DNA of 64,000 nt from an uncultured Alphaproteobacteria bacterium (GTDB lineage: Bacteria > Pseudomonadota > Alphaproteobacteria > HIMB59 > GCA-002718135): positions 8,083 to 72,082 of the forward strand of contig CACDMT010000002.1 of assembly GCA_902553945.1 (NCBI GenBank), in the 5' to 3' direction. Shown piece by piece: positions 19,778 through 37,649 of the stretch. Below the pieces are notes generated by a model. That model worked only from the letters and a program-made list of their open reading frames with translations, did no database searches and was not told the DNA's origin. Position numbers and translations under genes: made by a program. How positions within the stretch are numbered: the first letter of the stretch is position 1; the number at the start of each line of letters is the position of its first letter.

Positions 19778-19792
19778 AAATAGAATTTAATC

Positions 19793-19840
19793 CCACTCAC
19801 AACAATTGGACATAGCAGGAAGAAATAATATTGTGAGTGG
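19793..19840. repeat. 10-bp perfect inverted repeat between convergent ppk and arsC
   Basis: CCACTCACAA (19793..19802) and TTGTGAGTGG (19831..19840) are separated by 28 nt. No U-run follows immediately on either strand. Confidence 0.5.
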
Positions 19841-19922
19841 TAAAGAGTAATTAAATTTTATTTTTTACAGACGTGTTAATAGAATATTAAGTTTTTATAA
19901 ATTTAATTAATTTTTAACTTCA

Positions 19923-20614: not shown

Positions 20615-20632
20615 ATAAAGATATTAATCAAA

Positions 20633-20650
20633 TTGTAACAAAAATTTAAC
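20633..20650 (+). promoter_or_regulatory. candidate Pho-box-like element (DUF47-PiT side)
   Basis: TTGTAAC-AAAA-ATTTAAC, a 7-4-7 direct repeat. It ends 40 nt upstream of the ATG at 20690. Confidence 0.25.
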
Positions 20651-21352: not shown

Positions 21353-21358
21353 TTTTAA

Positions 21359-22411
21359 ATGGAAATTACAATATTAATTTTTTTATTTGGTGGTTTATTT
21401 TTAGGCTGGTCTCTTGGAGCAAATGATGCTGCTAATGTGTTTGGTACTGCGGTTGGAACACGAATGGTAAGTTTCACAAGTGCTGCCATAGTGTGTAGTA
21501 TATTTGTAATACTTGGAGCAATCATAAGTGGTGCTGGAACAACAGAAACACTTGGGAAGCTTGGAGCAATAAATGCATTACCGGGTGCTTTTGCTGCCTG
21601 CGTTGCAGCAGGGATTTCTGTTTACTTAATGACCAAAGTTGGACTGCCAGTTTCTACAACGCAAGCTATTGTAGGAGCTATAGTTGGTTGGAATTTATAT
21701 ACAGGATCATCAACAAACATTCAGGTTCTAATGACGATTTTAGCAACATGGATAATTTGCCCAATCATTGCGGGTATAATCGCAATGGGTTTATTTACGT
21801 TTACAAAAAGAGTTATTCTAAATAGAAAATTACATATTTTACGACTTGATGCATATACAAGAACAGCCTTACTACTTGCTGGTGCATTTGGAGCATATAG
21901 TTTGGGTGCAAATAACATTGCCAATGTTATGGGTGTCTTTGTTCCTATTTCCCCATTTACTGATATTAATATTTCCAACGTATTTATTTTTTCCTCAAAA
22001 GAACAATTGTTTTTACTTGGAGGTTTAGCCATAGCAGTAGGTGTATTCACTTACTCTAAGAGAGTCATGTATACTGTTGGAAATGATTTATTAAAGATGT
22101 CTCCTGTAGCAGCTTTTATTGTTGTTATTTCTCATTCGATCGTTTTATTTTTATTTGCCTCTCAGGGTATTAGTGCTTTTCTTCAATCTATTAACCTTCC
22201 TTCTATTCCGCTTGTTCCTGTTTCCAGTTCGCAAGCTGTTGTTGGAGGTGTTATTGGAATTGGGCTCCTAAAAGGAGGAAAAGAAGTGCAATGGTCCATT
22301 GCGGGAAGAATATCGATGGGATGGGTTACGCTGCCAATAATTGCAGCTCTAATATCTTTGATTATTTTATTTGTTTTAGAAAATATTTTTAATTTAACTG
22401 TTTCGTTTTAA
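21359..22411 (+). CDS. pitA: PiT-family inorganic phosphate transporter
   Basis: 350 aa, polytopic. The PHO4 signatures GANDAANVFGTAVG and GANNIANVMG are present as a duplicated motif. Confidence 0.9.
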   Translation: MEITILIFLFGGLFLGWSLGANDAANVFGTAVGTRMVSFTSAAIVCSIFVILGAIISGAGTTETLGKLGAINALPGAFAACVAAGISVYLMTKVGLPVSTTQAIVGAIVGWNLYTGSSTNIQVLMTILATWIICPIIAGIIAMGLFTFTKRVILNRKLHILRLDAYTRTALLLAGAFGAYSLGANNIANVMGVFVPISPFTDINISNVFIFSSKEQLFLLGGLAIAVGVFTYSKRVMYTVGNDLLKMSPVAAFIVVISHSIVLFLFASQGISAFLQSINLPSIPLVPVSSSQAVVGGVIGIGLLKGGKEVQWSIAGRISMGWVTLPIIAALISLIILFVLENIFNLTVSF

Positions 22412-22932
22412 CTTACTGCTCGGTAAGCAAAAATAAAGTCTTCTTGTATCTTTGACTCAATAGCTCCTTTTCGCCTTGATCGAACTAAATCAATTGCTTC
22501 TTGTTTAGGATAATTAAATTCTACAAGTAAAATGGCAGCTATTGTTCCTGCTCGTCCTTTACCACCACGACAATGTAAAACAATATTTTTTCCATCTATT
22601 AATTCATTTTTAAGAAGTACCTTTGTTGTTTCCCATTTGTATTTAAAATCTTTATCAGGCGCTCCCATGTCGTAAATTGGTAGATGATACCAATGCAACT
22701 TGTGGTCATAAATATTTTTTACAAATAAAGTTTTATCACATAATTTTTCAAATTCACCATCTTCAACAAACGATGTGATAGAGCTGCAGTTATTATTTTT
22801 AAAAAGATTAAGTTCATTATTAAAATGACTTACTTCAAATATTCCGTTTTCATTTAATCCTGGAAATGAAGTTAAGATTATTTTTCCAGCAAAAGATTTC
22901 GAGTCTATAAAATCGTATTCACTAAATTGCAT
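22408..22932 (-). CDS. cysteine (CX5R) phosphatase, dual-specificity/PTP-like
   Basis: 174 aa with the active-site loop VLHCRGGKGRAGT (HCxxGxxR-A/S/T). No signal peptide is visible. The start abuts the stop of the upstream HD gene. Confidence 0.7.
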   Translation of the reverse strand: MQFSEYDFIDSKSFAGKIILTSFPGLNENGIFEVSHFNNELNLFKNNNCSSITSFVEDGEFEKLCDKTLFVKNIYDHKLHWYHLPIYDMGAPDKDFKYKWETTKVLLKNELIDGKNIVLHCRGGKGRAGTIAAILLVEFNYPKQEAIDLVRSRRKGAIESKIQEDFIFAYRAVS

Positions 22933-23502
22933 TTAGGACTTGTTACCGAGAAAGGATTTTCTTGCATCTTCTAAATAAGGTCGAAAATGCTCAACATCTG
23001 GTGTTTTTTTATCAAGAATTTTAGCCATATCATCAAATCTTCTCAGTTCCACAGCTTCATCCATAAATGGTTTGTTTATAAATTCTTCTGCTTCTTCTTT
23101 GGTAAATGGTCCACCTTGAACTTTAAGTGATATTTTAGATGCCTCAGATAAACTGTCATAATACCCATCTTCAACACTTGATAGATATCTTTTTGAAGCA
23201 ACGTGTGCTCTAATAGGTAATATAACTTCTTCTCCAAAATATTTTTTTAAAAAATCAGCACCTAAGTTTTCATGATGACCATCCTTACCTTCATGAATAG
23301 GATCGCCGTCTTCATATACAAGATGTCCCACATCGTGAAGTAAGGCCGCTGCAATTGTTGGGCCAGGCAATTTATGTTGTTCAGCTAATTCAGCACATTG
23401 AAGAGCGTGTTCTAATTGAGTGACATCTTCATTGCCATATTGAATATCCGCTCCTTTAGTCTTCAAAAGATCCAGCAAATAATCTACAATATTTTCTTCC
23501 AT
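22933..23502 (-). CDS. HD-domain protein of the phosphonate-associated PhnZ-like family (mixed-valent di-iron oxygenase candidate)
   Basis: 189 aa. Motifs are QLEHALQCAELA, AALLHDVGH, HENLGADFL, HVASKRYL and LKVQGGP. As I recall the PhnZ sequence, this is its family pattern. It is divergent from phnW. Confidence 0.65.
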   Translation of the reverse strand: MEENIVDYLLDLLKTKGADIQYGNEDVTQLEHALQCAELAEQHKLPGPTIAAALLHDVGHLVYEDGDPIHEGKDGHHENLGADFLKKYFGEEVILPIRAHVASKRYLSSVEDGYYDSLSEASKISLKVQGGPFTKEEAEEFINKPFMDEAVELRRFDDMAKILDKKTPDVEHFRPYLEDARKSFLGNKS

Positions 23503-23540
23503 TCTTAGATAATAATTAACTTATTAGAAAATAATTTCAA

Positions 23541-23574
23541 TTCTAAGTTTTATACGATTGATCAATTTTATAAT
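23541..23574 (+). promoter_or_regulatory. candidate promoter for phnW with a plcP-like upstream element
   Basis: TTCTAAG-TTTT-ATACGAT (23541..23558) is followed after 10 nt by TATAAT (23569..23574). The TTTTATACRAT core is shared with the plcP upstream region (13666..13676). Confidence 0.25.
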
Positions 23575-23599
23575 AATATTTAAGAGGATAATAAGTTTA

Positions 23600-24697
23600 A
23601 TGGATAAAAAATTATTAACCCCAGGTCCTCTTACGACCTCAATGTCCACAAAAGAAGCTATGTTACATGATTGGGGATCAAGAGATAAAAAATTTATTGA
23701 TCTCAATTCATCTATAAGAGAGTCATTAGTTAAATTGATTGAGGGTGAAGATAATTATCAATGTGTTCCAATGCAAGGAAGTGGAACTTTTGCTGTTGAA
23801 TCTATGGTTAGTTCACTTACATCAAAAGACTCAAAGATACTGATTTTAATAAATGGTGCATACGGACAACGTATGAAAAAAATGTGCGCGTACTTAAATA
23901 GAGATTTTATAGAGTATGAAGTTGCAGAACATGAAGTACATGATTTAACTAAAATTGAAGAGCTAATTGATAATAATGAATTAACACATGTTTTCACTGT
24001 CTATTGTGAAACAACATCTGGTATTTTAAATCCTATTGAAGAAATTGCAAAATTAGTTGAATCAAAAAAACTATCTTTATTTATCGATGCCATGAGTGCC
24101 TTTGGGGCGCTACCTCTTAGTGCAAAAAAAATTAGTTTTGATGCGGTAGCTGCATCATCTAATAAATGCTTAGAAGGTGTTCCAGGTGTAGGTTTTATTT
24201 TAGTAAAAAATAATGTTATTCAAAATGCAAAAGGAAATAGTCATTCACTCAGTTTAGATTTGCATGATCAGTGGCAAGCGATGGAAAAAAATAAACAATG
24301 GCGTTTTACACCTCCGACACATGTATTAGCAGCTTTCAATCAAGCTATTAAAGAACATGAAAATGAAGGCGGAGTTCAGGGAAGACATCAAAGATATAAA
24401 AATAATTGTGCAATAATATGTTCCGGTATGAAAGAATTAGGTTTTGAACAATTACTTCCTGATAATTTACAAGCGCCAATTATTATAACTTTTAAACAAC
24501 CTAATGACTCAAGTTTTAATTTTGAAAAATTCTATAATGCACTTAGTGAAAAAAATTTCTTAATTTATCCTGGCAAACTAACTGTTGCTGAAACATTTCG
24601 TATAGGTTGTATTGGTAATTTAAATGAAAATGATATGCACGATACAATAAAAGCTGTTCAAGAAGTAATTCAAGAACTAGGTTTAAAAATTAATTAA
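23600..24697 (+). CDS. phnW: 2-aminoethylphosphonate--pyruvate transaminase
   Basis: The MDKKLLTPGPLTTS start follows an AAGAGGA RBS at 23582..23588. It is a class V aminotransferase with SSNKCLEGVPG (PLP-Lys region), and its length and N-terminus are typical of PhnW. The 14 upstream codons in the ORF track are judged spurious. Confidence 0.8.
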   Translation: MDKKLLTPGPLTTSMSTKEAMLHDWGSRDKKFIDLNSSIRESLVKLIEGEDNYQCVPMQGSGTFAVESMVSSLTSKDSKILILINGAYGQRMKKMCAYLNRDFIEYEVAEHEVHDLTKIEELIDNNELTHVFTVYCETTSGILNPIEEIAKLVESKKLSLFIDAMSAFGALPLSAKKISFDAVAASSNKCLEGVPGVGFILVKNNVIQNAKGNSHSLSLDLHDQWQAMEKNKQWRFTPPTHVLAAFNQAIKEHENEGGVQGRHQRYKNNCAIICSGMKELGFEQLLPDNLQAPIIITFKQPNDSSFNFEKFYNALSEKNFLIYPGKLTVAETFRIGCIGNLNENDMHDTIKAVQEVIQELGLKIN

Positions 24698-24703
24698 TTA
24701 TAA

Positions 24704-25336
24704 ATGACACAAGAAATTGAAATTCCACTAATTCAAGCTACTGATGAAAATCTTAAGGGATACGGTTACTTAATTGATACGTATGAAAAAAGTGAAATTG
24801 AAATTGTTACTTGGCCAAAACAAGGTTGGAGAGATATAGAAGAAGGAACAGGAAATGAAGGAGGAACAACAGAAGGCTCCTTTGATACTTGGTGGCAAGG
24901 TGATACTCTTTATGGACAAAATAATGCTGTTCAACATAAGAGTGATTACGAAGTTGATGGAAAATATATTCTTGGATATTCAACTAATCCTGATAATGAT
25001 TTACAAAAAGAAAATTATCAAACTCCAGATAAAATTTATTTATGGCATGCTAATTATCATCCAGATGGGGGACAACTTTTTTATCCTGAAGAAAAAAAAC
25101 CTTTCATTTGTCCGTTAGCATTACCAACAGATGATATAGAACCAGAACACTTTAAAGCGTTTTATTGTGATGGCTCTAAAGGTCTCTATATTCATCCCAA
25201 TATATGGCATGAGGGCGTCTTCCCTGTATCTGAAAAGCAATCTTTTCAAGGAAAACAGGGAAAAGTTCATGCCCGAGTTAGTATTGATTTAAAAGAAGAG
25301 TTTAATAAATATATTTATTTTAAAACTGAAATTTAA
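24704..25336 (+). CDS. cupin-like protein resembling the ureidoglycolate lyase (AllA) family; function unknown in this context
   Basis: 210 aa. It has the AllA-like patterns YHPDGGQLFYP and LYIHPNIWHEG. Residues H119-x-D121 and H164/H169 (my count) could form a metal site. It starts 7 nt after phnW. Confidence 0.45.
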   Translation: MTQEIEIPLIQATDENLKGYGYLIDTYEKSEIEIVTWPKQGWRDIEEGTGNEGGTTEGSFDTWWQGDTLYGQNNAVQHKSDYEVDGKYILGYSTNPDNDLQKENYQTPDKIYLWHANYHPDGGQLFYPEEKKPFICPLALPTDDIEPEHFKAFYCDGSKGLYIHPNIWHEGVFPVSEKQSFQGKQGKVHARVSIDLKEEFNKYIYFKTEI

Positions 25337-25359
25337 TTAAAATTAACTTAATTTAAATT

Positions 25360-26154
25360 ATGAAAATTATTCATTTATCTGATCCACATATTTATACAGA
25401 TAAAATTCATGGCATTGATCCAGTAAGTAGGTTTAAAAAAGCATTAGATCACATTTTAAAAAATCATAGTGATGCTGATCTATTTGTCATAACAGGTGAT
25501 ATCACAGATCTAGGAGATAAAGAGTCATATCAATTATTTATAAAAATAATTCAAGACGCAAATTTACCTGAACAATTATATCCAAAACTTATAATTGGAA
25601 ATCATGATAACCGTGAAGAATTTAAAAAAAACTTTCCTTCAATACAAGAAGATGAAAATGGTTTTGTTCAATATTTTAAAGATTTAGAAAATAAACGTTT
25701 TATTTTTATAGATACAAATTTAGATGATGAAGATAAAGGTTATTATTGTGAGGATAGACAGGCTTGGCTCAACAAAACTTTAAATCAAACATCTTATGAT
25801 AAGGATATTTATATTTTTATGCATCACAATCCTCTAGCTTTGGTGAAAGAAGAAACTGATGAGATTGGTCTTCAACAAAAAGAAGAATTTAAAAAAATTT
25901 TATTAAGTAGTAAAAAAAATATTAAACATATTTTTTTTGGACATCAGCATATAACAAGCTCCGGTTCGTATTGTAATATAACTTTTTCATCTCCAAGAAG
26001 TACGTGGTTTCCATTGATATCAAATTTTTCAAATCAATACAGACTGGGAACAGCAAATACAGATACAAATTATAATATTGCAATTATTCGATCAGATGGA
26101 ATTATTATTCATACTGAAGATTTTTTAAAAACTGAAGTAAATTGGATTGAATAA
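25360..26154 (+). CDS. calcineurin-like metallophosphoesterase (CpdA/GpdQ-type phosphodiesterase candidate)
   Basis: 264 aa with the complete motif set LSDPHIY, TGDITDLGD, GNHDNRE, MHHNP and GHQH. No signal peptide is visible. Confidence 0.7.
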   Translation: MKIIHLSDPHIYTDKIHGIDPVSRFKKALDHILKNHSDADLFVITGDITDLGDKESYQLFIKIIQDANLPEQLYPKLIIGNHDNREEFKKNFPSIQEDENGFVQYFKDLENKRFIFIDTNLDDEDKGYYCEDRQAWLNKTLNQTSYDKDIYIFMHHNPLALVKEETDEIGLQQKEEFKKILLSSKKNIKHIFFGHQHITSSGSYCNITFSSPRSTWFPLISNFSNQYRLGTANTDTNYNIAIIRSDGIIIHTEDFLKTEVNWIE

Positions 26155-26163
26155 TAAATAAAA

Positions 26164-27270
26164 TTATTTCTTTTCTATAACAAAAATTTCATTATTAAAA
26201 TAAAGACCTTTGTTTTTTGCAACTATATTTTGAACGATCTTTTCATAATTTTTTGTTTTTTCAACTTTCATTACTTTATCATCATCTATTTGATTTACAT
26301 ATATTGATGCATTCCATGCTGAAAAAACTATAGAGGTTGCTATACTTCCACTAATTTCATTTGGTAATGCTCTTAGCTTACATTTAATATTTCTTTTCTC
26401 ACCAAAATATAATTTATTAAGTGTTTCTTTATCCAAATTTTTCTTAAGATATGAAATAATGCTATTGCCAAGAGAAGGAAACGGGTTTTCTTTAGGCCAT
26501 ACTTTTTTAATAATATCATTTGCTGGATCTTTACCAGCAGCATGTATTGTTAATAATTTTCCCTTAGGTTTGAGCGCTCTAATCATTGGCTCAATTACAT
26601 ATTTTACTTTTTTTTCTGCGGATATTCTTGATCTGTATGGTTGAGAAGCTATAATGAGATCAAACTTATTATCAGAATTATTTTTTGTTGGAATTAATTC
26701 ATTTACATTAAATTCTTGGTCTTCTCTATAAATCACCATTACGGAAGGCTCTTTATATGTTGGATTACCTGTTTTTTTATTAACTTCTATATTCCATTTT
26801 TTCTCTAAGAAATCATTTTGACTTCTTAATTGTTGAGCAAATTCAAGTGAGGTATTTCCTTTTAGTTTTATAACATTCCAATTTATTTTTTTCTGTTTAT
26901 TTTCATTTTTAGATTTTAAATTGGCAGCTTCCGCATAATGTAAATTTGAGATTACAAAAACAGTATTCTTGTGTTCCACAAATCTATCAGGTAATTTTTC
27001 TAAACCCAATCTTACATCTTCAATACTAATTTCTTTTGTTGCAACTAACAAAGGAATGGTCGGATTTGCAGAATGGCATTGTCTCATTACATTCATCAAT
27101 AATGATCCATCACCCATGCCTGCATCAAATATTTTTATTCCAGGTTTTACTGGTTTGATTTTATTTACATGAGGACGAATTGCATCAGCAATTTGATTCT
27201 TTTCATTTGTAGTAGTTACGAATAATAAATATTTTTGTCTATTATCGTAAAATCTAAAATTTTTTTTCAT
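26164..27270 (-). CDS. putative class I SAM-dependent methyltransferase with a large insertion
   Basis: 368 aa. It has a motif-I-like IFDAGMGDGSLL, an acidic post-I VATKEIS, a later DLIIASQPY and LKPKGKLL. The assignment is weak. Confidence 0.4.
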   Translation of the reverse strand: MKKNFRFYDNRQKYLLFVTTTNEKNQIADAIRPHVNKIKPVKPGIKIFDAGMGDGSLLMNVMRQCHSANPTIPLLVATKEISIEDVRLGLEKLPDRFVEHKNTVFVISNLHYAEAANLKSKNENKQKKINWNVIKLKGNTSLEFAQQLRSQNDFLEKKWNIEVNKKTGNPTYKEPSVMVIYREDQEFNVNELIPTKNNSDNKFDLIIASQPYRSRISAEKKVKYVIEPMIRALKPKGKLLTIHAAGKDPANDIIKKVWPKENPFPSLGNSIISYLKKNLDKETLNKLYFGEKRNIKCKLRALPNEISGSIATSIVFSAWNASIYVNQIDDDKVMKVEKTKNYEKIVQNIVAKNKGLYFNNEIFVIEKK

Positions 27271-27272
27271 GT

Positions 27273-28385
27273 TTAGTATAAACCCATTAGTTGAGCAGAC
27301 TTGGTAAAAGATTCTTTATTGCCAATAAAGTTTTTCCCCCGTTCTCCTAAAAACGCATCATCTACTATATTATTCCATTCTTGAACAGGAACTTTTATTT
27401 CATTTAAATTTAAAGGCACATTTAATGAGCGCATGAAATCACTCAATTTGGATGAGCCAACTTCAAGATTACTGTTAAAAATTGATTGTAATCTCTCCTC
27501 AGCAACTGGATCGATGCCAATCATACTCCTTGTAACAATAGGAAGAGTAAAAGAACAAGCAATACCATGCTGAACTCCATAATTAAGAGTAATAGGATAA
27601 GAAAGGTTGTGCGAAATAGCTGTTTTAGTATTTGAAAATGCCAAACCAGCATGAACACATGCACGAGCAATGTTTGAACGTAATTCAACACTTTTAAGAT
27701 CTTTTGATAAAAGTGGTAAATTCTCTAAAACCAATTTCGAAGCTTGAATTGCATGTGATGCTGAAACTGGATTAGCATTAATATTCCATATGCTCTCCAT
27801 GGAATGAGATAATGCATCTAGACCAGTTGATATTGTAAGGCCAAGAGGTTTATCAACCATAATTGATGGATCAATAATTGCTTTTTCTGCATAGAGTGTT
27901 TTATGAGCCAAAGAGAGTTTATTATTTTTTTCTTTATCCCAAATTGTAGCCCAACAAGTAAGCTCACTTGATGTTCCAGAAGTTGTTGGTACGGCAATAA
28001 TTTTTATAGGATTTTCAACCTTTGGACTTTTTTTATTTCTGACAAAATCTGTTAGATATTCTTGATTTTCTTTAAATGCCGCAATAGCTTTTGCTGTATC
28101 AGTCACAGATCCACCACCAATTGCTAAAATATAATCAACATTTTTTTTAATAGAAGAAAATTTTTTTTGAAGTTCCAAAATATCTTTGTAATCAGGGTTG
28201 GGTTGAACTTCTGTCATAATAGCTAAAGGGGGATTTGATGATGTGTTTAATTCATCACTATATTTTTTAAAAATTTCTTCTGGATGCGTGATAATTATAT
28301 AACTTTTATCTTTAAGTGCATTATGTACTTCCTGAAATCTATTTTTACCAAAGATGATTTCTACGGGATTAAAGTAATTCCACAT
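27273..28385 (-). CDS. iron-containing (group III) alcohol dehydrogenase
   Basis: 370 aa with the GGGSVTDTAKAIA nucleotide-binding motif and metal ligand regions (DALSHSMES, HNLSYP, HGIACS). Confidence 0.85.
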   Translation of the reverse strand: MWNYFNPVEIIFGKNRFQEVHNALKDKSYIIITHPEEIFKKYSDELNTSSNPPLAIMTEVQPNPDYKDILELQKKFSSIKKNVDYILAIGGGSVTDTAKAIAAFKENQEYLTDFVRNKKSPKVENPIKIIAVPTTSGTSSELTCWATIWDKEKNNKLSLAHKTLYAEKAIIDPSIMVDKPLGLTISTGLDALSHSMESIWNINANPVSASHAIQASKLVLENLPLLSKDLKSVELRSNIARACVHAGLAFSNTKTAISHNLSYPITLNYGVQHGIACSFTLPIVTRSMIGIDPVAEERLQSIFNSNLEVGSSKLSDFMRSLNVPLNLNEIKVPVQEWNNIVDDAFLGERGKNFIGNKESFTKSAQLMGLY

Positions 28386-28389
28386 TATT

Positions 28390-29469
28390 TTAAATTGATT
28401 TTGCTGCTTTTGATAAAATTGTCATTTTTTCAATTGCCTGTTCTCTTGTAAAAAAACCTAAACCACAATCTGGAGCAGCAATCAAACGATGCTCATCAAT
28501 ATGCTCTAAAGAATCTTTCATTCTAGTTCTAACTTCTTCTACAGATTCCATTCTACTTTTAGCAATATCAATAAATCCAAAAATAACTTTTGTTTTTTTA
28601 AATTTTTCTAAAAGATTTAAATCATTATGTCGGTGAGAATCTTCCAGAGATACAGCATCAATAGTAGAGTCATCAACTAATGTAGCAATTCTATCGTATG
28701 CGTCTAAGTCTGCTTTTTTATATCCTGTTGAGTCAAGAGAGTTCGGATAACCACAACAAATATGACATTCCCTTTGTACATCTTTAGGAATTCCATGCAT
28801 CATTCTTTCTAGGTTTTCCATGCCGTATATATTTGCTTCTTCTGGTTTTCTTGCAAAAACTGGTTCATCAATTTGAATATATTTACATCCAGCATCAACT
28901 AATGCTTTTATTTCTTTATTTAGAGCTAACGCTAAATCAAAACCAAGTTTTTTAAGATCGTCATAGTAGTTATTTGCAATAGAGTCAGTTATTGTCATCG
29001 GACCGGGTAATGTAATCTTAACTGGATTTTTGGTGAATTGTTGAGCGCTTTTCCAATCAAATGGCATGCGTATTTCTTTACTTGATACTGGACCGATTAT
29101 TGTTGGAACATTCGCTTCAAAAGCTCCTTGTCTCACTGATTTGTGAGTTACTTCTTCAAAACTTATATTATTTAAAAAACGACATTGGTGGAAAACATAA
29201 CTTTCTCTTCGTACTTCACCATCCGTTGGAACATCAATACCAGCACTTACTTGATCAAGTATAACTTCTTTAATTGCTTCTAAAAATAAATTTTCTACAT
29301 TATCACCAGCATCCTTTAGTGCTTTTTCGTAAGCACCTGGTGACCAATTTGCTAATAGTCCTTTAGATGCTTTTTTTTCCTCTTCTGATTTTGTACCTAA
29401 GAACCAATCATTGATTGGTGTATTTTTAGGTTTTGGATAAGCACCTATTGTGGTTGTTATAAGTGGCAT
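28390..29469 (-). CDS. MetE C-terminal-domain-like Zn-dependent alkyl/methyltransferase family protein
   Basis: Zn ligands fit the MetE/epoxyalkane-CoM-transferase family (HICCGYP His-x-Cys, and APDCGL Cys). The N-terminus ITTTIGAYPKP is MetE-like. I place the start at MPLITT (29469) because GGAGG sits 5 nt upstream; the ORF-track start at 29496 lacks one. Confidence 0.7.
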   Translation of the reverse strand: MPLITTTIGAYPKPKNTPINDWFLGTKSEEEKKASKGLLANWSPGAYEKALKDAGDNVENLFLEAIKEVILDQVSAGIDVPTDGEVRRESYVFHQCRFLNNISFEEVTHKSVRQGAFEANVPTIIGPVSSKEIRMPFDWKSAQQFTKNPVKITLPGPMTITDSIANNYYDDLKKLGFDLALALNKEIKALVDAGCKYIQIDEPVFARKPEEANIYGMENLERMMHGIPKDVQRECHICCGYPNSLDSTGYKKADLDAYDRIATLVDDSTIDAVSLEDSHRHNDLNLLEKFKKTKVIFGFIDIAKSRMESVEEVRTRMKDSLEHIDEHRLIAAPDCGLGFFTREQAIEKMTILSKAAKSI

Positions 29470-29498
29470 TGTTCCTCCATTAATATTTTTAAACAAGA

Positions 29499-29523
29499 AC
29501 AGCGGCTTTTATAAAGCCGCTGT
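29499..29523 (-). terminator. rho-independent terminator after the SBP gene
   Basis: 11-bp perfect stem ACAGCGGCTTT / AAAGCCGCTGT with a 3-nt loop. On the minus strand it is followed by TCTTGTTT. It lies 31 nt downstream of the SBP stop at 29555. Confidence 0.75.
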
Positions 29524-29554
29524 CATAAAAAGTTAATAATAAAGTGATCTTAAT

Positions 29555-30808: not shown

Positions 30809-30866
30809 TTAATCCTCCCGATTATGAATATAAATTATAGTTTAATCTAACATGTAGAATAAAATC

Positions 30867-30884
30867 GTTACAAATTTATTACAC
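30867..30884 (-). promoter_or_regulatory. candidate Pho box upstream of the SBP gene
   Basis: The minus strand reads GTGTAAT-AAAT-TTGTAAC. Compared with the E. coli consensus CTGTCAT-AAAA-CTGTCAC, 10 of 14 half-site positions match and the 7-4-7 spacing is correct. It ends 58 nt upstream of the ATG. Confidence 0.3.
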
Positions 30885-30888
30885 AAAT

Positions 30889-30907
30889 ATTACTAAAAAT
30901 TAGTAAT
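30889..30907. promoter_or_regulatory. 7-5-7 palindrome ATTACTA-AAAAT-TAGTAAT
   Basis: Perfect inverted repeat located just distal to the Pho-box-like element in the SBP promoter region. Confidence 0.25.
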
Positions 30908-30936
30908 TTTTTTCCACAGAATTTTTAAAAGTTTCC

Positions 30937-30961
30937 AAAAAACCTTGGTTTTTACCAAGGT
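30937..30961 (-). terminator. rho-independent terminator of the phnA-phnY operon (stem includes the phnY stop codon)
   Basis: The minus strand reads ACCTTGGT-AAAA-ACCAAGGT followed by a T5-6 run (30941..30937). Confidence 0.65.
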
Positions 30962-32391
30962 AAAGAAAAGGTTTTAACATTAGTAAAGCTCTTCATCGCT
31001 TCAATGACACCCTCTTTGTATCCCAGTCCCGAGTCTTTAATTCCCCCAAAAGGTGACATTTCAATTCTGTAACCAGGCACTTCCCAAATATTGACAGTTC
31101 CAACATTTAAGTTTTGGATATATTTTTTTGCTCTCATAAAATTATTGGTGCACACACCTGAAGATAATCCAAAAGCAGTTGAATTTGAGATCTTTATGAC
31201 AGATTCATCATCATTGGGAACGCGTATAATTGGAATGACAGGCCCAAAAGTTTCTTCCAATACTAATTCACTTTTAGGATCAACATTATCAATTACTATA
31301 GGAGGCAATAACGCACCTTTTCTTCCAGGATGATATAAAATTTTAGCACCTTCTGCTTCTGCCATTGAAACTCTCTTATCAAATAGTTCAGCTGCTTGAG
31401 CATTAACAACGGTACCTAAATCAGTTTCCATGCTCATTGGATCTCCGAACTTAATTTTTTTAGCTCTTTCCAAAACCATTTCAACAAACTGATCAGCAAT
31501 TTTTTCTTGCACAAGTATTCTTTTAACTGCAGTACAGCGTTGTCCTGAATTTTTTGTTGCACCAGTTACGGCTAATTCAACAGCTTTCTTTAAATCATCT
31601 GAATCTAAATCATTTAAAACAATTAAAGGGTCATTTCCGCCAAGTTCAAGAACGGTTCTTTTGTATCCTGCTTGTTCAGCAATTAGTTTTCCAACACCAA
31701 CACTTCCAGTAAAAGTAATAAGGTCAATATTTGGATTCTTTATCATTTCTGAACCAATATCTTGTGGCCAACCTGTAACAACAGAAAACATTTCAGGGGG
31801 TAGACCAGCTTCATATAAAACATCAGCAAGAACCATTGCTGTTAAGGGAGTTAACTCAGTCTGTTTACAAACAGTACAATTATTCGTTGCAATGGAAGGA
31901 GCAATTTTATGAGCCACCATGTTTAATGGATGATTAAAAGGGGTAATTGCAGAAATTGCTGTTAATGGTTCTCTTATTGTAAATATTTTTCTCGCTTTTC
32001 CATGAGGAGTTAAATCACAAGAAAAAATTTCTCCGTCATCATGAATACAAAGTTGGGCAGTTAAAGAAAAAACATCAAATGCCCTACCGACTTCATATAA
32101 CGAGTCTTGTTTTGAAATCCCAAGCTCTAAAGTAATTATATCAGAAATTTCTTCTTTTCTTTTTACAAGAACCTCAGCAGCTGTTTGAAGAATTTTTTGT
32201 CTTTCATATCGTGTAAGCTTTGGTTGATAGTTTGCAGCAATTTCAAGAGCTTGTCTTGCATGTTCAGCATTTCCTGCAGGAACCGTACCAATGACTTCGC
32301 CTGTAAAAGGATACTCAACATCTATTGTTTTTTCAAAAGTTACTTTTTTGCCAGCAATTCGCATAGCTTCATTAATCATTTTCTTTTCCAT
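30952..32391 (-). CDS. phnY: phosphonoacetaldehyde dehydrogenase (NAD-dependent aldehyde dehydrogenase family)
   Basis: 479 aa ALDH with ELGGNDP and the catalytic Cys in SGQRCTAV. It overlaps the phosphonoacetate hydrolase gene by 1 nt. phnW is in the same neighbourhood (PhnWAY pathway). Confidence 0.7.
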
Positions 32392-33632
32392 TACAGGGCT
32401 CCATTAATTGCATAGTAGAATGCATCATAATTATATAACTGTTTTTCATTATTGTAATTTTGTATTTTTAGATTTGATATAAAAGGCACTTCTCGCTCAT
32501 GCAAACCACCATGAGAACGTAAAGGTTCATTTAATCCAGAAAGATTATGTTTATCTTCCGATGATCCAATGGTCATAAATTCTGAGGACATACATATTAT
32601 ATCACCCATCCGATCAGGAGGAAGATTGTATGTATTGCAACCTTCATCTTTTGTTAACACTACCTCTATATCCTTAATTTCTTTAATTGATTCTATAACG
32701 TCATTAACTTTAGTTTTATCTTCAAGATAAATTGTTGCAAATGAACCTAATGATCCGTGATGAACAACATAAGGATCGGTTATTGGTAAAATAACTTTTG
32801 CTACATTTGGTTCAAATTTTTTATCAAGATAATCTTGTAAAAAAATTGCATTAGGTGAACCATCATCTTTTGATTTTGGTTTCATACCGTGATCAGCTGT
32901 AATAATTATTGATACATCGCCCTTATTTAAAAGACCGATATATTTATCAAACATAGCGTAAAATTTATTAGCCACTTCATTTCCTGGTGCATACTTATGT
33001 TGAATATAATCTGTTGTAGATAAGTACATTATATTTGGTTTAAATTCCTCAAGTAGTTTAACTCCAGCTGCCATAACAAATTCGGAAAGACCCTGAGAGT
33101 ATACTTCCGGTACGGGCATTCCTAACCAGTCATTAACATTATCAATGCCATTATGTTCTTTTGTTGCCTGATCAGATTTTTCGGCTGAAAAACATATTGC
33201 TCGATTATCATCAAATCCTAAACCGTTGCCCAAAAGAGTTCTGAGTTTATCTTTCGCCGTAACAAGAGCAATCTTTGATCCAGAATTATAAAATTTTTCA
33301 AATATTGTTGGTGCACGCATATATTTTGGATCATTCATCATTACTTCTTCCCCTGTTTCAGGAGTGTAAAAAAAATTACCACATATTCCGTGAACAGAAC
33401 TAGGTTGCCCTGTTACTATTGATATATTATTTGGATTTGTAAAACTTGGGATAGCACTATGAACAAGTAAACTCTCTCCATTAGAAATTAATGCATCAAT
33501 ATTGGGTGTAAGATTTAGTTTTGATGCCTCTTCGAGATACTCTTTTTGACTTCCATCCAGACAAATGACTATGGCTGTCTTTGCAAATTTACTTGGGTAT
33601 TCTCTTTTGTTAATTTCTAGGTTTTCGGTCAC
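32391..33632 (-). CDS. phnA: phosphonoacetate hydrolase (alkaline-phosphatase superfamily)
   Basis: 413 aa with a GTG start. Motifs are [21 protein letters not shown] and ITADHGM, typical of the PhnA/nucleotide pyrophosphatase fold. Confidence 0.75.
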
Positions 33633-33709
33633 AATTTTTAATTAATATATAAATAAAAAAACAAATTTATAGTTATATGTTGTCTAAACTCAATAATAAT
33701 TTGAAAATA

Positions 33710-33753
33710 TGTTCATAAAATTGAAATAAAAGTGCAATATTTAGATTTAAAAT
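33710..33753 (+). promoter_or_regulatory. three phased Pho-box-like half-sites plus possible -10 upstream of the ABC operon
   Basis: TGTTCAT-AAAA-TTGAAAT-AAAA-GTGCAAT (33710..33738) has strict 11-bp phasing. TAAAAT at 33748..33753 begins 9 nt after the last half-site. The GTG start is at 33810. Confidence 0.3.
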
Positions 33754-33809
33754 AATCTTAAATATTATAATATTTTAAAAAAAAATTAAAAATAAAGGGG
33801 AGGAATCTG

Positions 33810-34943
33810 GTGGGAACTATATCACTTAAAAACATTTCAAAATCTTTTGGATCAACTCAGGTATTAAAAAATCTTAATGTAGATATAAAAGATGGAGAAT
33901 TTTTGACTTTAGTTGGTCCTTCTGGTTGTGGTAAATCTACTTTACTTAGAATTATAGCTGGGCTTGAACAACAAACTTCTGGTGATGTTTTAATTGATGA
34001 TAAAGTTGTAAATAAAATTAGGGCAAGTGAACGAGACTTGGCAATGGTTTTCCAATCGTATGCTCTCTATCCTCATCTGACAGTAAGAAGAAATTTAGAA
34101 ACGCCATTAAGACTTCGAGATTATAATTCATTTGAAAGACTACCGTTGATTGGAAATTTTTCTCCAAATAAAAAAAATAAAACTGAATCTATAAATCAAT
34201 TAGTAAACAAAACTTCGGAAACACTTAAAATCTCTGAACTACTAGATAGAAAACCAGGTCAGTTATCTGGAGGTCAGAGACAAAGAGTAGCTCTTGGTCG
34301 TGCAATGGTGCGGGAACCTGTTGCTTTTTTGATGGATGAACCTCTGTCTAATTTGGATGCAGCGTTAAGAGTTCATATGCGCTCCGAATTATCAGAGCTT
34401 CATAATTCACTTAAAACCACTTTTGTATACGTTACTCATGATCAAGCAGAGGCGTTAACGATGTCTTCTCGAATGGCAGTCATGATTGATGGAAATTTAT
34501 TACAATTAGATACTCCGCAGGAAGTATACGATAATCCTTTATCCTTAAGTGTTGCCCAATTCGTTGGAAGTCCTAAAATTAATATTTTTAGTGGTTCATC
34601 AGACTCAAGTGGAATTGTAAATTTTTTAAATCTTAACTTAAAAAGAAAATGTTCAGAAAAAAATCTAGAATTAAGTATTGGTATTAGACCTGAACATTTA
34701 GAAATTACCAATCAAAGCGATGAAAATACTTTTAGTGCAACAGTTGTGTATAGAGAAAATTTAGGATCAGATATTTTCTTTCATGTAAATACAGAAGATG
34801 GAATGAATAGAATCATTGTAAGAGGTATACCACAATTTACAAATGAAATTTCTAATGGCTCAAAAGTAAATATTAAAAGAGTTTCTGATAAAGCTTTATT
34901 ATTCAATAGTGAAGGAAAGAGGATTCAATTTAATAATGCATAA
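33810..34943 (+). CDS. ABC transporter ATP-binding protein, MalK/UgpC-type (CUT1)
   Basis: 377 aa with a GTG start after an AAGGGGAGG RBS. It has Walker [10 protein letters not shown], signature LSGGQRQRV and a C-terminal regulatory/TOBE-like domain. An extra segment of about 18 aa (SFERLPLIGNFSPNKKNK) is present relative to my recollection of MalK. Confidence 0.85.
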   Translation: MGTISLKNISKSFGSTQVLKNLNVDIKDGEFLTLVGPSGCGKSTLLRIIAGLEQQTSGDVLIDDKVVNKIRASERDLAMVFQSYALYPHLTVRRNLETPLRLRDYNSFERLPLIGNFSPNKKNKTESINQLVNKTSETLKISELLDRKPGQLSGGQRQRVALGRAMVREPVAFLMDEPLSNLDAALRVHMRSELSELHNSLKTTFVYVTHDQAEALTMSSRMAVMIDGNLLQLDTPQEVYDNPLSLSVAQFVGSPKINIFSGSSDSSGIVNFLNLNLKRKCSEKNLELSIGIRPEHLEITNQSDENTFSATVVYRENLGSDIFFHVNTEDGMNRIIVRGIPQFTNEISNGSKVNIKRVSDKALLFNSEGKRIQFNNA

Positions 34944-35892
34944 TTCTAAAGCTCATATTTGGTTTATTGCTCCTGCAATAATACTAATGATTGTTATATT
35001 AATTTTTCCATTGTTTCTCGCAGGGGGAATTTCTTTTACCGATTATAATTTAGGGAATAAGTCTATTGGATGGGTCGGATTAGAAAACTATGACAAAATG
35101 TTCAATAGAAAAACTTATGTAAAAATGATTTGGGCTACAGCAACCTATGTAATCGTGGTGGTTCCTATTTCAGTCGTACTTGGTTTGTGTGCTGCAATGC
35201 TCCTAAATTCTCTTAGGTTTGGAGCTGATATTTATAAAACAATTTTCTTTCTTCCTGTTATGGCGACTCTTCTTGCTATGGCTATTGCATGGGAATTCAC
35301 TCTGCATCCAACACTAGGTATAGTTAATAGTTTTTTAGCCAACGGTTGTGGAGGAATTAGAGAATTTATTTTAGGTTTGCATTGGTTACCATGGGTAGAC
35401 TCACAGCAAAGCTGGTATCATGTGGCTTGTGCAAATAATATGGATTTTCCATATTGGCTAAAGCAAAAAAATACAGCGATTTGGACAATTTGTTTTATAG
35501 GAATTTGGCAAGCATTTGGTTTTAATATGGTTTTATATTTAGCAGGCCTAACAGGTATACCTAGGGAATTATATCAAGCAGCCGAAATGGATGGTGCTAA
35601 ATCAACATGGGAGCAATTTAAACTTGTAACCTGGCCAATGCTTGGACCTACAACTTTATTTGTAGTAACAATTACAACAATTAGAACATTTCAAGTTTTT
35701 GATACAATTGAAATACTTACCAAAGGTGGCCCATCTAAAACTACGTACGTTATGATGTATGCAATATTTGAAAAAGCTATTCAACAAAACTTAACGAGTA
35801 TTGGAGCAGCAATTACAGTTGTATTTATAGCTTTCATATTAATTTTAACTTTCTTCCAGAGATATGTGATTGAAAGGAGAGTACATTATTAA
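34936..35892 (+). CDS. ABC transporter permease (UgpA/MalF-type)
   Basis: EAA loop QAAEMDGAKSTWEQFKLVTWPML. I prefer the start at MHNSKAHIW (34936), an 8-nt overlap with the ATPase gene. The ORF-track start is at 34909. Confidence 0.8.
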   Translation: MHNSKAHIWFIAPAIILMIVILIFPLFLAGGISFTDYNLGNKSIGWVGLENYDKMFNRKTYVKMIWATATYVIVVVPISVVLGLCAAMLLNSLRFGADIYKTIFFLPVMATLLAMAIAWEFTLHPTLGIVNSFLANGCGGIREFILGLHWLPWVDSQQSWYHVACANNMDFPYWLKQKNTAIWTICFIGIWQAFGFNMVLYLAGLTGIPRELYQAAEMDGAKSTWEQFKLVTWPMLGPTTLFVVTITTIRTFQVFDTIEILTKGGPSKTTYVMMYAIFEKAIQQNLTSIGAAITVVFIAFILILTFFQRYVIERRVHY

Positions 35893-36785
35893 TGCAAGCT
35901 AAAGAATACATTGGTGAAAGCTGGAAACATGGCATTTTAATAGTTGGTGCAATCCTTGTTCTACTTCCATTTTATATGATGGTTTCAATGTCGCTTAAAT
36001 CTCAGCAAGAAATTCAATCAATTTCTGGAGGTTTAATAGGAGCGCAAGAAGTTCAAACATTTCCAGTCTGTGTAAAAACTGGTTATTCTGAAGAAACATG
36101 CACAACAAAGCCATATATTTACAATTACTGGTTTGCTTTTGAAAAAGCTCCAATTCCAAGATACTTAATGAATGGAGTAATAGTAACTTTATCAATTTTT
36201 ATTATTCAAGTTCTTGTTGCTCTACCTTGTGCCTATGCTCTTGCCAAACTTCGGTTTTATGGACGGGAATTTGTATTTTCAATGGTATTATTTTGTTTAC
36301 TAATTCCTGTGCACGGGATTGCACTTCCTCTTTATGTAATGCTTGCCCAAGCCGGATTGGTTGATACCTATTCCGCCTTGATACTCCCCTGGACAATATC
36401 TGTATTTGGAATTTTTCTCATGCGGCAATTCTTTATGACAGTTCCAGATGAATTAATTGACGCCGCCAGGATGGATGGCATGGGAGAATATTCTATAGTA
36501 TGGAAAGTGATGCTCCCAACAGCAATACCCGCATTATTGGCATTTGCAATATTCTCAGTTGTTGCACACTGGAATGATTACTTCTGGCCGCGAATGGTTA
36601 TTACAGGGAATAGAGATCTATTTACTCCACCACTTGGTATTAGAGAATTTAGGGGAGGTATAGATAGTGATGAATTTGGACCAATGATGGCATCAATTGT
36701 AACTGTTACAGTTCCTTTAATTGTAGCTTTCATAATTGCACAAAAAAGATTTATTGAAGGAATTACTCTGACAGGGATGAAATAA
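35892..36785 (+). CDS. ABC transporter permease (UgpE/MalG-type)
   Basis: 297 aa with EAA loop DAARMDGMGEYSIVWKVMLP. It overlaps the preceding permease by 1 nt. Confidence 0.8.
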   Translation: MQAKEYIGESWKHGILIVGAILVLLPFYMMVSMSLKSQQEIQSISGGLIGAQEVQTFPVCVKTGYSEETCTTKPYIYNYWFAFEKAPIPRYLMNGVIVTLSIFIIQVLVALPCAYALAKLRFYGREFVFSMVLFCLLIPVHGIALPLYVMLAQAGLVDTYSALILPWTISVFGIFLMRQFFMTVPDELIDAARMDGMGEYSIVWKVMLPTAIPALLAFAIFSVVAHWNDYFWPRMVITGNRDLFTPPLGIREFRGGIDSDEFGPMMASIVTVTVPLIVAFIIAQKRFIEGITLTGMK

Positions 36786-36806
36786 AACTATAATTAGTTT
36801 TTTCTG

Positions 36807-37649
36807 ATGCCTGACTATTTTTTATTTTTGCTTATATTAATTGCTGCTCTTTCACACGCAGTCTGTCATAGCATTCTAAAGAACAATAAAAACCCTCTGG
36901 GAATATTAGGAGTAACATCTATTTTTGAAATAATAATTTTTACTCCACTTGTATTAAGTGTTCCTTTTCCAACAACTTATATTTGGATTTTAATTATTCT
37001 TTCTGCTTTCCTACATGGTTTGTATAGATTGTTTGTTGTTTACTCATATCAATATGGTGATTTATCATTCATATATCCAATAGCGAGAGGATCCTCATCT
37101 TTATTGCTAGCATTAATAAGTGTAATTTATTTATCAGATAAAATTTCTTTAATTGGTTTTGTTGCAATACTAATCGTTTGCTTCGGACTGTTTTTAATAT
37201 CATATTCAGATAAATTGAAGTTTAATTATACTGCTTTTGGATTGGGTTTTTTAACAGCTATTATGATAACAACATATACTCTAGTAGATGGCATTGGTGT
37301 TAGAAATTCTCCAAACCCATATACCTTTTTATATTGGATGCTTTTATTAAATGGAACTCCAGCATTAGTTGTTTCATTTTTATTTAGAAACAATGGAATA
37401 AGAGTGATTAATAAAAATCTTATTTTTACAGGCGTTTTATTCGGAATATTAGCTCCGTTAGCATATGGAATAGTAGTTTGGTGTATGCAATATTTACCAA
37501 TAGCGTATGTTTCATCTTTACGTGAGAGTAGTATAATATTTGCAACCTTAATTGGTATGATAATTCTTAAAGAGAATACAGCCTCAAAAAGATTGGTACC
37601 TTCAGTATTTGTTGTTCTTGGAATATCACTGTTATATTTTCAATTATAA
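36807..37649 (+). CDS. EamA/DMT-family transporter
   Basis: 280 aa with 10 TM-like segments in a duplicated EamA pattern. It starts 21 nt after the ABC permease. Confidence 0.65.
   Translation: MPDYFLFLLILIAALSHAVCHSILKNNKNPLGILGVTSIFEIIIFTPLVLSVPFPTTYIWILIILSAFLHGLYRLFVVYSYQYGDLSFIYPIARGSSSLLLALISVIYLSDKISLIGFVAILIVCFGLFLISYSDKLKFNYTAFGLGFLTAIMITTYTLVDGIGVRNSPNPYTFLYWMLLLNGTPALVVSFLFRNNGIRVINKNLIFTGVLFGILAPLAYGIVVWCMQYLPIAYVSSLRESSIIFATLIGMIILKENTASKRLVPSVFVVLGISLLYFQL

Follow-up and report, generated by a model that had tools for sequence, protein, structure and literature searches.

Gene content of the phosphonate block

We analyzed a 64,000-nucleotide stretch of an uncultured alphaproteobacterium (contig CACDMT010000002.1), referred to in full as the window, and focused on a block at 22408 to 37649 in which the phosphonate genes phnW, phnY and phnA lie among a CUT1-type importer and several enzymes of other families. 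The G+C content of the window is about 30%, and its nearest relatives are SAR11 single-cell genomes and marine metagenome contigs. Genes were identified by calling open reading frames (ORFs) and scanning them with Pfam and NCBIfam against curated cut-offs; absences were judged from scans of all other ORFs down to about 185 aa and of some shorter ones. The block holds the following genes.

22408-22932, minus strand: dual-specificity/tyrosine-phosphatase-fold protein (PTP); PF22784/PF00782, HCX5R loop
22933-23502, minus strand: HD-domain oxygenase, PhnZ/TmpB family; TIGR03276, 199.6 bits (cut-off 214.6)
23558-24697, plus strand: PhnW, 2-aminoethylphosphonate (AEP):pyruvate transaminase; NF010006, 515 bits (cut-off 296); TIGR02326, 468 bits (cut-off 401)
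24704-25336, plus strand: cupin of the AllA (ureidoglycolate lyase) family; PF04115
25360-26154, plus strand: cytoplasmic GpdQ/SpdA-like binuclear metallophosphodiesterase; PF00149; SpdA model, 189 bits
26164-27270, minus strand: class I S-adenosylmethionine (SAM)-methyltransferase-fold protein of an undescribed family, 368 aa; last gene of the minus-strand operon
27273-28385, minus strand: PhpC-type Fe/Zn alcohol dehydrogenase (Fe-ADH); PF00465; TIGR03405, 365.6 bits (cut-off 423.7)
28390-29496, minus strand: single-domain MetE-like (MesD-like) Zn-dependent homocysteine methyltransferase; PF01717
29555-30808, minus strand: periplasmic substrate-binding protein (SBP) of a CUT1-type ABC importer; SBP_bac_1/8, signal peptide
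30952-32391, minus strand: PhnY, phosphonoacetaldehyde dehydrogenase; TIGR03250, 796 bits (cut-off 636)
32391-33632, minus strand: PhnA, phosphonoacetate hydrolase, for carbon-phosphorus (C-P) cleavage to acetate and phosphate; TIGR02335, 468 bits (cut-off 408)
33810-36785, plus strand: ABC ATPase (UgpC/MalK-like) and two permeases (UgpA/E-like) of the CUT1 importer
36807-37649, plus strand: EamA/DMT membrane protein, the right border of the island in every version; PF00892; TIGR03340, 113.7 bits (cut-off 288)

The binding protein is the only one of these proteins with a signal peptide. Judged by intergenic gaps, which are 0 to 58 bp inside units, the genes form four predicted transcription units.

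Unit 1, minus strand: HD oxygenase and PTP, 0-bp gap
Unit 2, plus strand: PhnW, cupin and esterase, gaps of 6 to 23 bp
Unit 3, minus strand: PhnA and PhnY, then, after a 143-bp spacer, SBP, MesD-like, ADH and methyltransferase-fold genes, the last three with gaps of 2 to 4 bp
Unit 4, plus strand: ATPase, two permeases and EamA

An initial annotation had described this block as a noncanonical neighborhood, with the three phn genes split apart and interleaved with seven unassigned enzymes, and had stated that no described pathway accounts for the combination. The observation is essentially right. PhnW, PhnY and PhnA each score above their curated equivalog cut-offs, and PhnW lies 6.3 kb from PhnY on the opposite strand. 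The HD oxygenase, the HCX5R phosphatase, the AllA-like cupin and the metallophosphoesterase were confirmed by Pfam/NCBIfam, motifs and solved relatives, and so were the MetE-like enzyme, the Fe-ADH, the methyltransferase-fold protein and the CUT1 system (by PF01717, PF00465, a fold match and SBP_bac_1, respectively). The idea of a wholly undescribed pathway does not hold, since PhnW/PhnY/PhnA, PhpC-type ADHs and PhnZ/TmpB-type HD oxygenases have all been described.

The block is a mosaic island conserved in SAR11 genomes

Synteny was assessed in GTDB species-representative genomes with the methyltransferase-fold protein as the anchor, by running tblastn with all window proteins against the 80 anchored loci (L-numbers such as L001 denote the loci and contigs compared from the homology searches). 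The gene set is syntenic across SAR11 genomes: 20 of the 80 loci, representing about 20 SAR11 species-level genomes, carry the island. The full form is present in 14 to 15 loci, while L019 and L021 keep the ADH and lack the MesD-like and ABC genes, and L022 and L024 lack all of them. The metagenome contig L089 also carries the short form, and L092 its left half up to the contig end. The order in the short form is PhoU_div-PHO4, PTP-HD, PhnW-cupin-esterase, methyltransferase-fold-PhnY-PhnA and EamA. Because the short forms do without them, the genes for the ADH, the MesD-like enzyme, the binding protein and the other three ABC components can be recognized as an accessory insertion in two pieces. 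In L004, the transporter slot of the island is occupied by a different Ugp-like ABC system with a GDPD esterase, and the MesD-like gene is replaced by a homocysteine S-methyltransferase of PF02574. Two adjacencies, that of the cupin directly after PhnW and that of HD and PTP, are kept in every SAR11 version seen, including the rearranged ones.

The block is therefore a mosaic of separately occurring modules and not one odd pathway. The seven unassigned enzymes, which had been grouped into a single pathway, belong to modules that occur separately elsewhere, and the short SAR11 island exists without the Fe-ADH, MetE-like and ABC genes. We conclude that the block is a variant of known phosphonate clusters that is mosaic, SAR11-specific and probably PhoB-linked, and that it carries four or five conserved, abundant and uncharacterized gene families.

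Predicted backbone enzymes for aminoethyl- and hydroxyethylphosphonate

The longest PhnW ORF opens at a TTG, orthologues are called with 365 to 367 aa, and the family model aligns from about residue 17 onward. Translation probably begins at the ATG of codon 15 (14 codons in), which would widen the divergent HD/PhnW promoter region to about 97 bp.

For the Fe-ADH, TIGR03405 is the best model by far (the runner-up reaches 162 bits), and the enzyme is a probable dehydrogenase of 2-hydroxyethylphosphonate (HEP) that would yield phosphonoacetaldehyde. Its gene shares a strand with phnA-phnY and is located directly downstream of the two; a candidate promoter sits in the 143-bp spacer between PhnY and SBP. 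Neither pepM nor aepY was found among the ORFs scanned in the window, and the Fe-ADH, phnY and phnA genes do not stand in a biosynthetic context.

Piazza et al. (2026, PMC13576164) reported that PhpC-type pf00465 dehydrogenases encoded in phnY-phnA or phnX degradative clusters oxidize HEP to phosphonoacetaldehyde and that PbfG, an unrelated Zn-ADH, catalyzes the same reaction; NAD-dependent HEP oxidation was shown there for the Paraburkholderia fungorum PhpC only, phpC was seldom found in AEP-dedicated clusters, and the main text mentions neither SAR11 nor Pelagibacter. At the level of the enzyme class, the earlier suggestion that the Fe-ADH feeds HEP into PhnY and PhnA now has experimental support (PMC13576164). 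Lockwood et al. (2022, PMC9381506) found phpC within AEP operons and mapped ocean-metagenome reads of phnA, phnW, phnY and phnZ largely to Pelagibacterales and other Alphaproteobacteria. In these two papers, no phosphonate association is mentioned for the AllA-like cupin, the PTP-fold protein, the MesD-like/methyltransferase-fold pair or a CUT1 importer with a GpdQ-like esterase. The backbone that leads from AEP or HEP through phosphonoacetate to phosphate is already described; judged by family assignment, the Fe-ADH, PhnY and PhnA match the published HEP catabolic module, and the addition of PhnW gives the known hydrolytic AEP/HEP route.

Phosphate-starvation surroundings and candidate Pho boxes

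Since Pho, Pst, lipid-remodeling and polyphosphate genes precede it in the window, the block is the distal part of a large phosphate-stress island. The regulatory genes, the phosphate transporters and the candidate Pho boxes are as follows.

6187-6870, minus strand: PhoB response regulator; TIGR02154, 331 bits (cut-off 296)
6882-6909: candidate Pho box, just upstream of phoB
6912-12104: PstS/C/A/B-PhoU, next to the PhoR-like kinase; Pfam
12136-13188, minus strand: PhoR-like histidine kinase; HisKA and HATPase_c
20623-20650, plus strand: candidate Pho box ATTAATCAAATTGTAACAAAAATTTAAC, 40 bp upstream of PhoU_div/PHO4
20690-22411, plus strand: PhoU_div (TIGR00153) and a PHO4/Pit-type transporter, the left border of the island in every version
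30867-30894, minus strand: candidate Pho box AGTAATATTTGTGTAATAAATTTGTAAC in the 143-bp spacer between PhnY and SBP, about 50 bp upstream of where the SBP gene starts

The E. coli-type Pho box TGTCAT-N5-TGTCAT was not enriched (69 sites versus 94 expected), and for this reason a TGTAAY variant was adopted. Phased tandem direct repeats of TGTAAY-N5-TGTAAY, with an 11-bp period, were found at three promoters, those of phoB, PhoU_div/PHO4 and the binding protein; the box at 30867-30894 contains zero- and one-mismatch matches. The PhoU_div/PHO4 box stands at the same distance in L003, L007, L009-L016, L020-L023 and L089, and the binding-protein box at the same position in L003, L006-L016, L020 and L043, so that the position is also kept in more divergent loci, for both boxes in L003 and for the PhoU_div box in L089. 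In L003, one-mismatch TGTAAY sites also lie upstream of the HD gene and phnA. These repeats, placed ahead of the genes for PhoB, the Pit-type transporter and the binding protein, suggest that the block is under PhoB control through a candidate SAR11 Pho box. The initial annotation had remarked on the lack of a LysR or GntR regulator; neither was found in the window, but regulators are nonetheless present in the form of PhoB, the PhoR-like kinase and the candidate Pho boxes.

The upstream stretch (6187-20441) makes up a complete phosphate-stress island; besides PhoB, PhoU, PstBACS and the PhoR-like kinase, it contains a PlcP-like esterase with an Agt-like glycosyltransferase (a lipid-remodeling pair), a MIP channel, Ppx, a SixA-like protein, Ppk1 and an ArsC-like protein. 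The entire stretch is missing between MurJ and PhoU_div in L089 and L092, and it is therefore a variable insertion itself.

Contexts of the CUT1 importer

The binding protein is remote from UgpB, scoring 64.5 bits on the UgpB model (cut-off 411) and matching solved UgpB relatives only at E values of 1e-12 to 1e-16. Its orthologues, with 63 to 69% identity, are common in roseobacters and other Alphaproteobacteria, where they occur in three contexts. In Phaeobacter (L086-L088, L098), the orthologue belongs to a cassette with a LysR gene and the five-gene order ATPase-permease-permease-SBP-metallophosphoesterase, and with no phn genes; the ATPase and permeases of the window are 51 to 64% identical to those of this cassette, which resides on plasmids and chromosomes and in one plasmid has a recombinase gene just downstream. 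The link between importer and metallophosphoesterase that the initial annotation had drawn thus recurs elsewhere, in these five-gene cassettes, and the nearest solved relative of the esterase is GpdQ. In L096, another alphaproteobacterial contig, a MesD-like gene that shares 61% identity with its counterpart in the window comes next after the SBP orthologue, and 6 kb away lies a Zn-ADH that reaches 300 bits on TIGR03366 ("phosphonate catabolism associated alcohol dehydrogenase"), for which the cut-off is 328. Given the shared Pfam family (pf00107) and the model name, we infer that this Zn-ADH corresponds to a PbfG-like HEP dehydrogenase. In the third and most abundant marine version, the SBP gene precedes those of a class III aminotransferase, a Zn-ADH and an isomerase-like protein. 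These loci (L093-L095, L099-L102) are LysR cassettes with a hydroxypyruvate-isomerase-like isomerase, and the SBP orthologue was found in 266 contig-index blocks; a conserved protein of about 440 aa with a weak URO-D match lies nearby, and some copies are on plasmid-like DNA with TraY and HipA.

The remainder of the window is housekeeping, apart from a second ABC system 9 kb downstream of the block.

46681-50429: second ABC system, distantly PhnS2T2U2-like; plus-strand ATPase, with the fused 531-aa permease and the SBP_bac_6 protein encoded on the minus strand

Its best NCBIfam matches are PhnT2 (286 bits), PhnU2 (52 bits) and PhnS (49 bits), all far below cut-off; it is a possible AEP importer or could be an iron/thiamine-type system. 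Of the absences listed in the initial annotation, those of C-P lyase, PhnX, PhnCDE and PhnY* stand for the scanned ORFs, but that of an AEP-type importer is not secure because of this system. Nucleoside salvage genes downstream of the block (43770-45711 and 53053-55174) encode a PfkB-family kinase, an adenosine deaminase, a pyrimidine-nucleoside phosphorylase and a purine-nucleoside phosphorylase, and may bear on nucleotide-derived phosphorus.

HD oxygenase, PTP, cupin and metallophosphodiesterase

The best solved relatives of the HD protein are TmpB (6npa, E value of 6.6e-35) and PhnZ (4mlm, E value of 2e-29), both aligned end to end, and the alignment includes a Tyr/Glu pair that we take to be the substrate-binding residues of PhnZ. 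Neither a partner hydroxylase (TauD/PhyH-type Fe/2-oxoglutarate, PhnY*) nor TmpA was present among the ORFs scanned across the 64-kb window. In L001, a metagenome contig with otherwise about 97 to 100% protein identity to the window, the HD gene is called as two fragments (3865-4411; 55 and 132 aa), which suggests a frameshift or an assembly error. The neighboring PTP protein has HCRGGKGR at residue 121 and no signal peptide, and its best solved relative is SsoPTP (E value of 2e-9).

Within the region that aligns to E. coli AllA (1xsr; profile E value of 2e-9), the cupin has two motifs in common with it, and its Foldseek top matches are AllA, on a low-confidence model (pLDDT of 60) that lends weak support. 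When the cupin was considered as a PhnY*-type hydroxylase, its sequence and, weakly, its fold pointed to AllA, and JmjC-type oxygenases were matched only at E values of about 1e-3 on the poor model. The family has more than 4,000 homologue clusters in public data. On plasmids and chromids, no link of the cupin to phosphonates was seen; the only homologues there were from Paraburkholderia, with 50% identity, beside an OYE reductase, an MFS transporter and a LysR regulator.

The best solved relative of the metallophosphoesterase is GpdQ (2dxl/3d03, E value of 3.5e-16), which places it at the family level only, and its sequence holds DPH, GD and GNHD, presumably the metal-binding motifs of metallophosphoesterases. 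The compound EA 2192 is a phosphonate monoester. PMC9371700 presents GpdQ as a phosphodiesterase of Enterobacter aerogenes, and its reference list includes a 2007 study on the hydrolysis of EA 2192 by GpdQ.

Methyltransferase-fold and MesD-like proteins

The methyltransferase-fold protein has no Pfam or NCBIfam match. It contains an FDAGMGDG motif whose G residues are invariant or nearly so, and the AlphaFold model (pLDDT of 74) has histamine N-methyltransferase 1jqe as its Foldseek top match (E value of 4e-9, TM scores of 0.47 to 0.60); 166 matches have E values of at most 0.001, and all 50 of those listed are methyltransferases. As candidate assignments, we rejected arsenite methyltransferase, as there are no conserved cysteines among the invariant columns, and BtaA, MetW and MesX, in view of the complete lack of Pfam matches.

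Over 6,000 homologue clusters in public data belong to this family. In about 22 Pelagibacteraceae genomes, the gene stands beside MetY and an α/β-hydrolase, far from phn genes, and these copies form a clade apart from the island copies. In these loci (L005, L025-L046), the gene directly follows MetY (O-acetylhomoserine sulfhydrylase family) and the 271-aa α/β-hydrolase, and homoserine dehydrogenase and aspartate-semialdehyde dehydrogenase adjoin, which is a methionine-biosynthesis context. About 38 distant loci (Steroidobacteraceae, Woeseiaceae, SAR86, Rhizobiales and others) also lack phn genes; at least 12 of them have short MetE-like genes within 10 kb, several immediately upstream, and in 16 a MetF lies immediately downstream, whose profile matches 7xg9 (E value of 2.5e-88), which we take to be a Sphingobium SYK-6 enzyme. 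These MetY, MetE-like and MetF contexts connect the family with the metabolism of methyl groups, homocysteine and methionine rather than with phosphonates themselves. The arrangement in L047-L085, with one or two short MetE-like genes upstream and MetF downstream (e.g., L076 7494-11110; L070 10001-12045), often near TonB receptors, a catechol dioxygenase and a CoA-transferase, resembles an as yet undescribed operon for the handling of methyl groups.

For the MesD-like protein, the best solved relative is MesD 3RPD (E value of 8.7e-45, 157 bits), and in this alignment the zinc-ligand positions HxC, E and C and the homocysteine-binding E/D are kept. MesX (DUF1852, PF08908) had no match among the ORFs scanned across the window.

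Proposed function and alternative explanations

We consider it fairly probable that, within one SAR11 lineage, the block serves as the phosphonate arm of a phosphate-starvation island and is built as a mosaic of mostly known modules. Going by family membership, PhnW would convert AEP to phosphonoacetaldehyde, the PhpC-type ADH would produce the same compound from HEP, PhnY would oxidize it to phosphonoacetate, and PhnA would release acetate and phosphate. The HD oxygenase would open a second, oxidative outlet of C-P cleavage for 1-hydroxy-phosphonates, which would have to be taken up ready-made or be made by an enzyme encoded elsewhere. The accessory insertion would supply the CUT1 importer, the ADH and the MesD-like homocysteine methyltransferase. 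From its context, the most likely cargo of the importer is an anionic organophosphorus compound, either an alcohol or an ester (HEP itself, a phosphonate monoester or a phosphodiester), from which the cytoplasmic GpdQ-like esterase, the MesD-like enzyme or both may strip the substituent, and the product would enter the backbone. The four transcription units are probably PhoB-driven, and the block would accordingly scavenge phosphorus rather than carbon or nitrogen. The cupin, PTP, MesD-like and methyltransferase-fold proteins are conserved passengers. A HEP-dehydrogenase-type gene recurs near the SBP/MesD-like pair, PhpC-type in SAR11 and PbfG-like in L096, which is the best hint that HEP or a HEP derivative is involved.

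Several points weigh against this assignment. Adjacency in a streamlined genome is no proof of a shared pathway. The HD protein falls just under the cut-off of TIGR03276 ("phosphonate degradation HD-domain oxygenase"), the Fe-ADH is below that of TIGR03405 (365.6 versus 423.7), and the EamA protein is below that of TIGR03340 ("phosphonate utilization associated membrane protein"). The diesterase does not adjoin the ABC genes, being in a different operon, and with only 34% identity to the Phaeobacter enzyme it may not be an orthologue. The TGTAAY motif was derived in the present analysis, and it is only modestly enriched over chance (with at most one mismatch, 7 sites versus 2.95 expected, and 6 of 100 shuffles reach 7); the HD/PhnW and PhnA/ATPase spacers of the window have two-mismatch versions only, and most loci that support the box positions are close relatives, which makes positional conservation weak evidence. 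Furthermore, the commonest marine roseobacter context pairs the importer with an aminotransferase, a Zn-ADH and an isomerase and with no phosphorus enzyme. As the roseobacter contexts show, the cargo need not be a phosphonate or contain phosphorus.

The initial annotation had proposed that the CUT1 system imports a sugar- or glycerol-linked phosphonate ester, from which the metallophosphoesterase frees HEP or methylphosphonate for completion by the Fe-ADH, PhnW, PhnY and PhnA. A CUT1-type importer and a GpdQ-like esterase with the phosphodiesterase fold are indeed present, the ADH and ABC genes are gained and lost largely together in SAR11, a candidate Pho box precedes the binding protein, L004 has a Ugp-like system with a GDPD esterase in the same slot of the island, and HEP esters have been reported in marine polysaccharide (literature cited in PMC13576164). 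We nevertheless think this model unlikely: the esterase is in another operon than the importer, no island enzyme would cleave methylphosphonate, SBP orthologues 63 to 69% identical occur in roseobacter cassettes without phosphonate genes, and the MesD-like, methyltransferase-fold, cupin, PTP and HD proteins are given no role. Neither a glycoside hydrolase nor any other sugar-processing enzyme was found in the block, so a glycosylated-phosphonate cargo is without specific support. It is also rather improbable that the neighborhood is coincidental, with unrelated Pho-regulon and methionine-cycle genes piled up in a variable island and only PhnW/PhnY/PhnA, together with the ADH, forming a pathway. 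Every accessory module is found elsewhere without phn genes, the island sits within a larger Pho island (Pst, PlcP-Agt, Ppk, Ppx, ArsC), and presence and absence vary among SAR11 genomes, all as coincidence would have it; yet genes of different modules are translationally coupled (2 to 4 bp for MesD-like/ADH/methyltransferase-fold, 6 to 23 bp for PhnW/cupin/esterase), PhnW-cupin and HD-PTP stay adjacent even in rearranged versions, and a HEP-dehydrogenase-type gene of either class recurs near the SBP/MesD-like pair.

A further explanation is methyl-donor salvage, in which the importer would take up a methyl-bearing organophosphorus compound, such as N-methylated AEP, trimethyl-AEP or a methyl phosph(on)ate ester; the MesD-like enzyme would move the methyl group to homocysteine to give methionine, the methyltransferase-fold protein would act in the same relay, and the demethylated product would pass to the PhnW or ADH branch. 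We regard this as very doubtful. The SBP/MesD-like pair is kept at 61 to 64% identity outside SAR11 (L096), the MesD-like protein keeps its zinc and homocysteine ligands, L004 has the unrelated homocysteine S-methyltransferase (PF02574) in its place, the methyltransferase-fold family is linked elsewhere to MetE-like, MetF and MetY genes, and the HD protein is closest to TmpB, the oxygenase of the trimethyl-AEP pathway. Against this, nothing directly indicates a methylated phosphonate substrate, TmpA is absent from the window scan, class I methyltransferases normally consume SAM and do not harvest methyl groups, the short island keeps the methyltransferase-fold gene without the MesD-like gene, and the pair could merely serve methionine supply. 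There is correspondingly only a slim chance that the CUT1 importer, the MesD-like enzyme and the methyltransferase-fold protein make up a new methyl-salvage system passing methyl groups from an imported organophosphorus compound to homocysteine; if they do, one substrate would give SAR11 methionine and, through the ADH, PhnY and PhnA, phosphate. More generally, a fifth kind of methionine-synthase system, folate-independent or atypical, might have its missing partner in the methyltransferase-fold family, whose neighbors in other Proteobacteria are short MetE-like genes and a SYK-6-type MetF.

SAR11 is the most abundant heterotroph of the surface ocean, and phosphonates make up a large share of marine dissolved organic phosphorus. 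Read as a phosphonate arm of the phosphate-starvation island, the block would show how SAR11 packages known chemistry as a scavenging unit, probably PhoB-controlled, in place of the substrate-induced LysR operons of other bacteria. It also points to very abundant, uncharacterized families riding along, such as the methyltransferase-fold protein and the cupin. The importer is common to SAR11 and roseobacters, and knowing what it carries would establish a new entry route to the marine phosphorus cycle, and perhaps to the methyl or sulfur cycle too.

Comparison with known systems

Similar to the PhnW-PhnY-PhnA pathway of Sinorhizobium meliloti and Pseudomonas fluorescens, the window has all three enzymes above cut-off, with PhnA and PhnY co-transcribed. 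Its PhnW, however, is in a separate divergent operon, no LysR regulator or PhnSTUV/AepXVW importer adjoins in the window, the adjoining importer is of the CUT1 type, six extra gene families are interleaved, and control is probably by PhoB. The HEP clusters (PMC13576164) share with the window a pf00465 ADH, for which TIGR03405 is the best NCBIfam model, in one operon with phnY-phnA, whereas the ADH of the window is below the TIGR03405 cut-off, is flanked by MesD-like and methyltransferase-fold genes, and has phnW in the same cluster.

Compared with PhnY*/PhnZ and TmpA/TmpB, the HD protein aligns over its full length with TmpB and PhnZ, including the Tyr/Glu pair, but no partner hydroxylase was found among the ORFs scanned in the window, and the HD gene is paired with a small PTP-fold phosphatase. 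The combination of a CUT1 importer with a GpdQ-class binuclear metallophosphoesterase, which form one cassette in Phaeobacter, resembles Ugp uptake with GpdQ in Enterobacter aerogenes; in the window, though, the binding protein is not UgpB (64.5 bits, cut-off 411), and the esterase is in another operon. Finally, Price et al. (2021, PMC7857596) characterize MesD as a methionine synthase that works without folate and requires MesX and oxygen. The MesD-like protein is likewise a single MetE domain, with MesD 3RPD as its nearest structure and the zinc and homocysteine ligands kept, but it is more distant, at 157 bits to 3RPD (the 390- to 560-bit thresholds of that paper use another reference, ACIAD3523); no MesX was found among the ORFs scanned in the window, and the partners of the protein are an ABC binding protein and a class I methyltransferase-fold protein.

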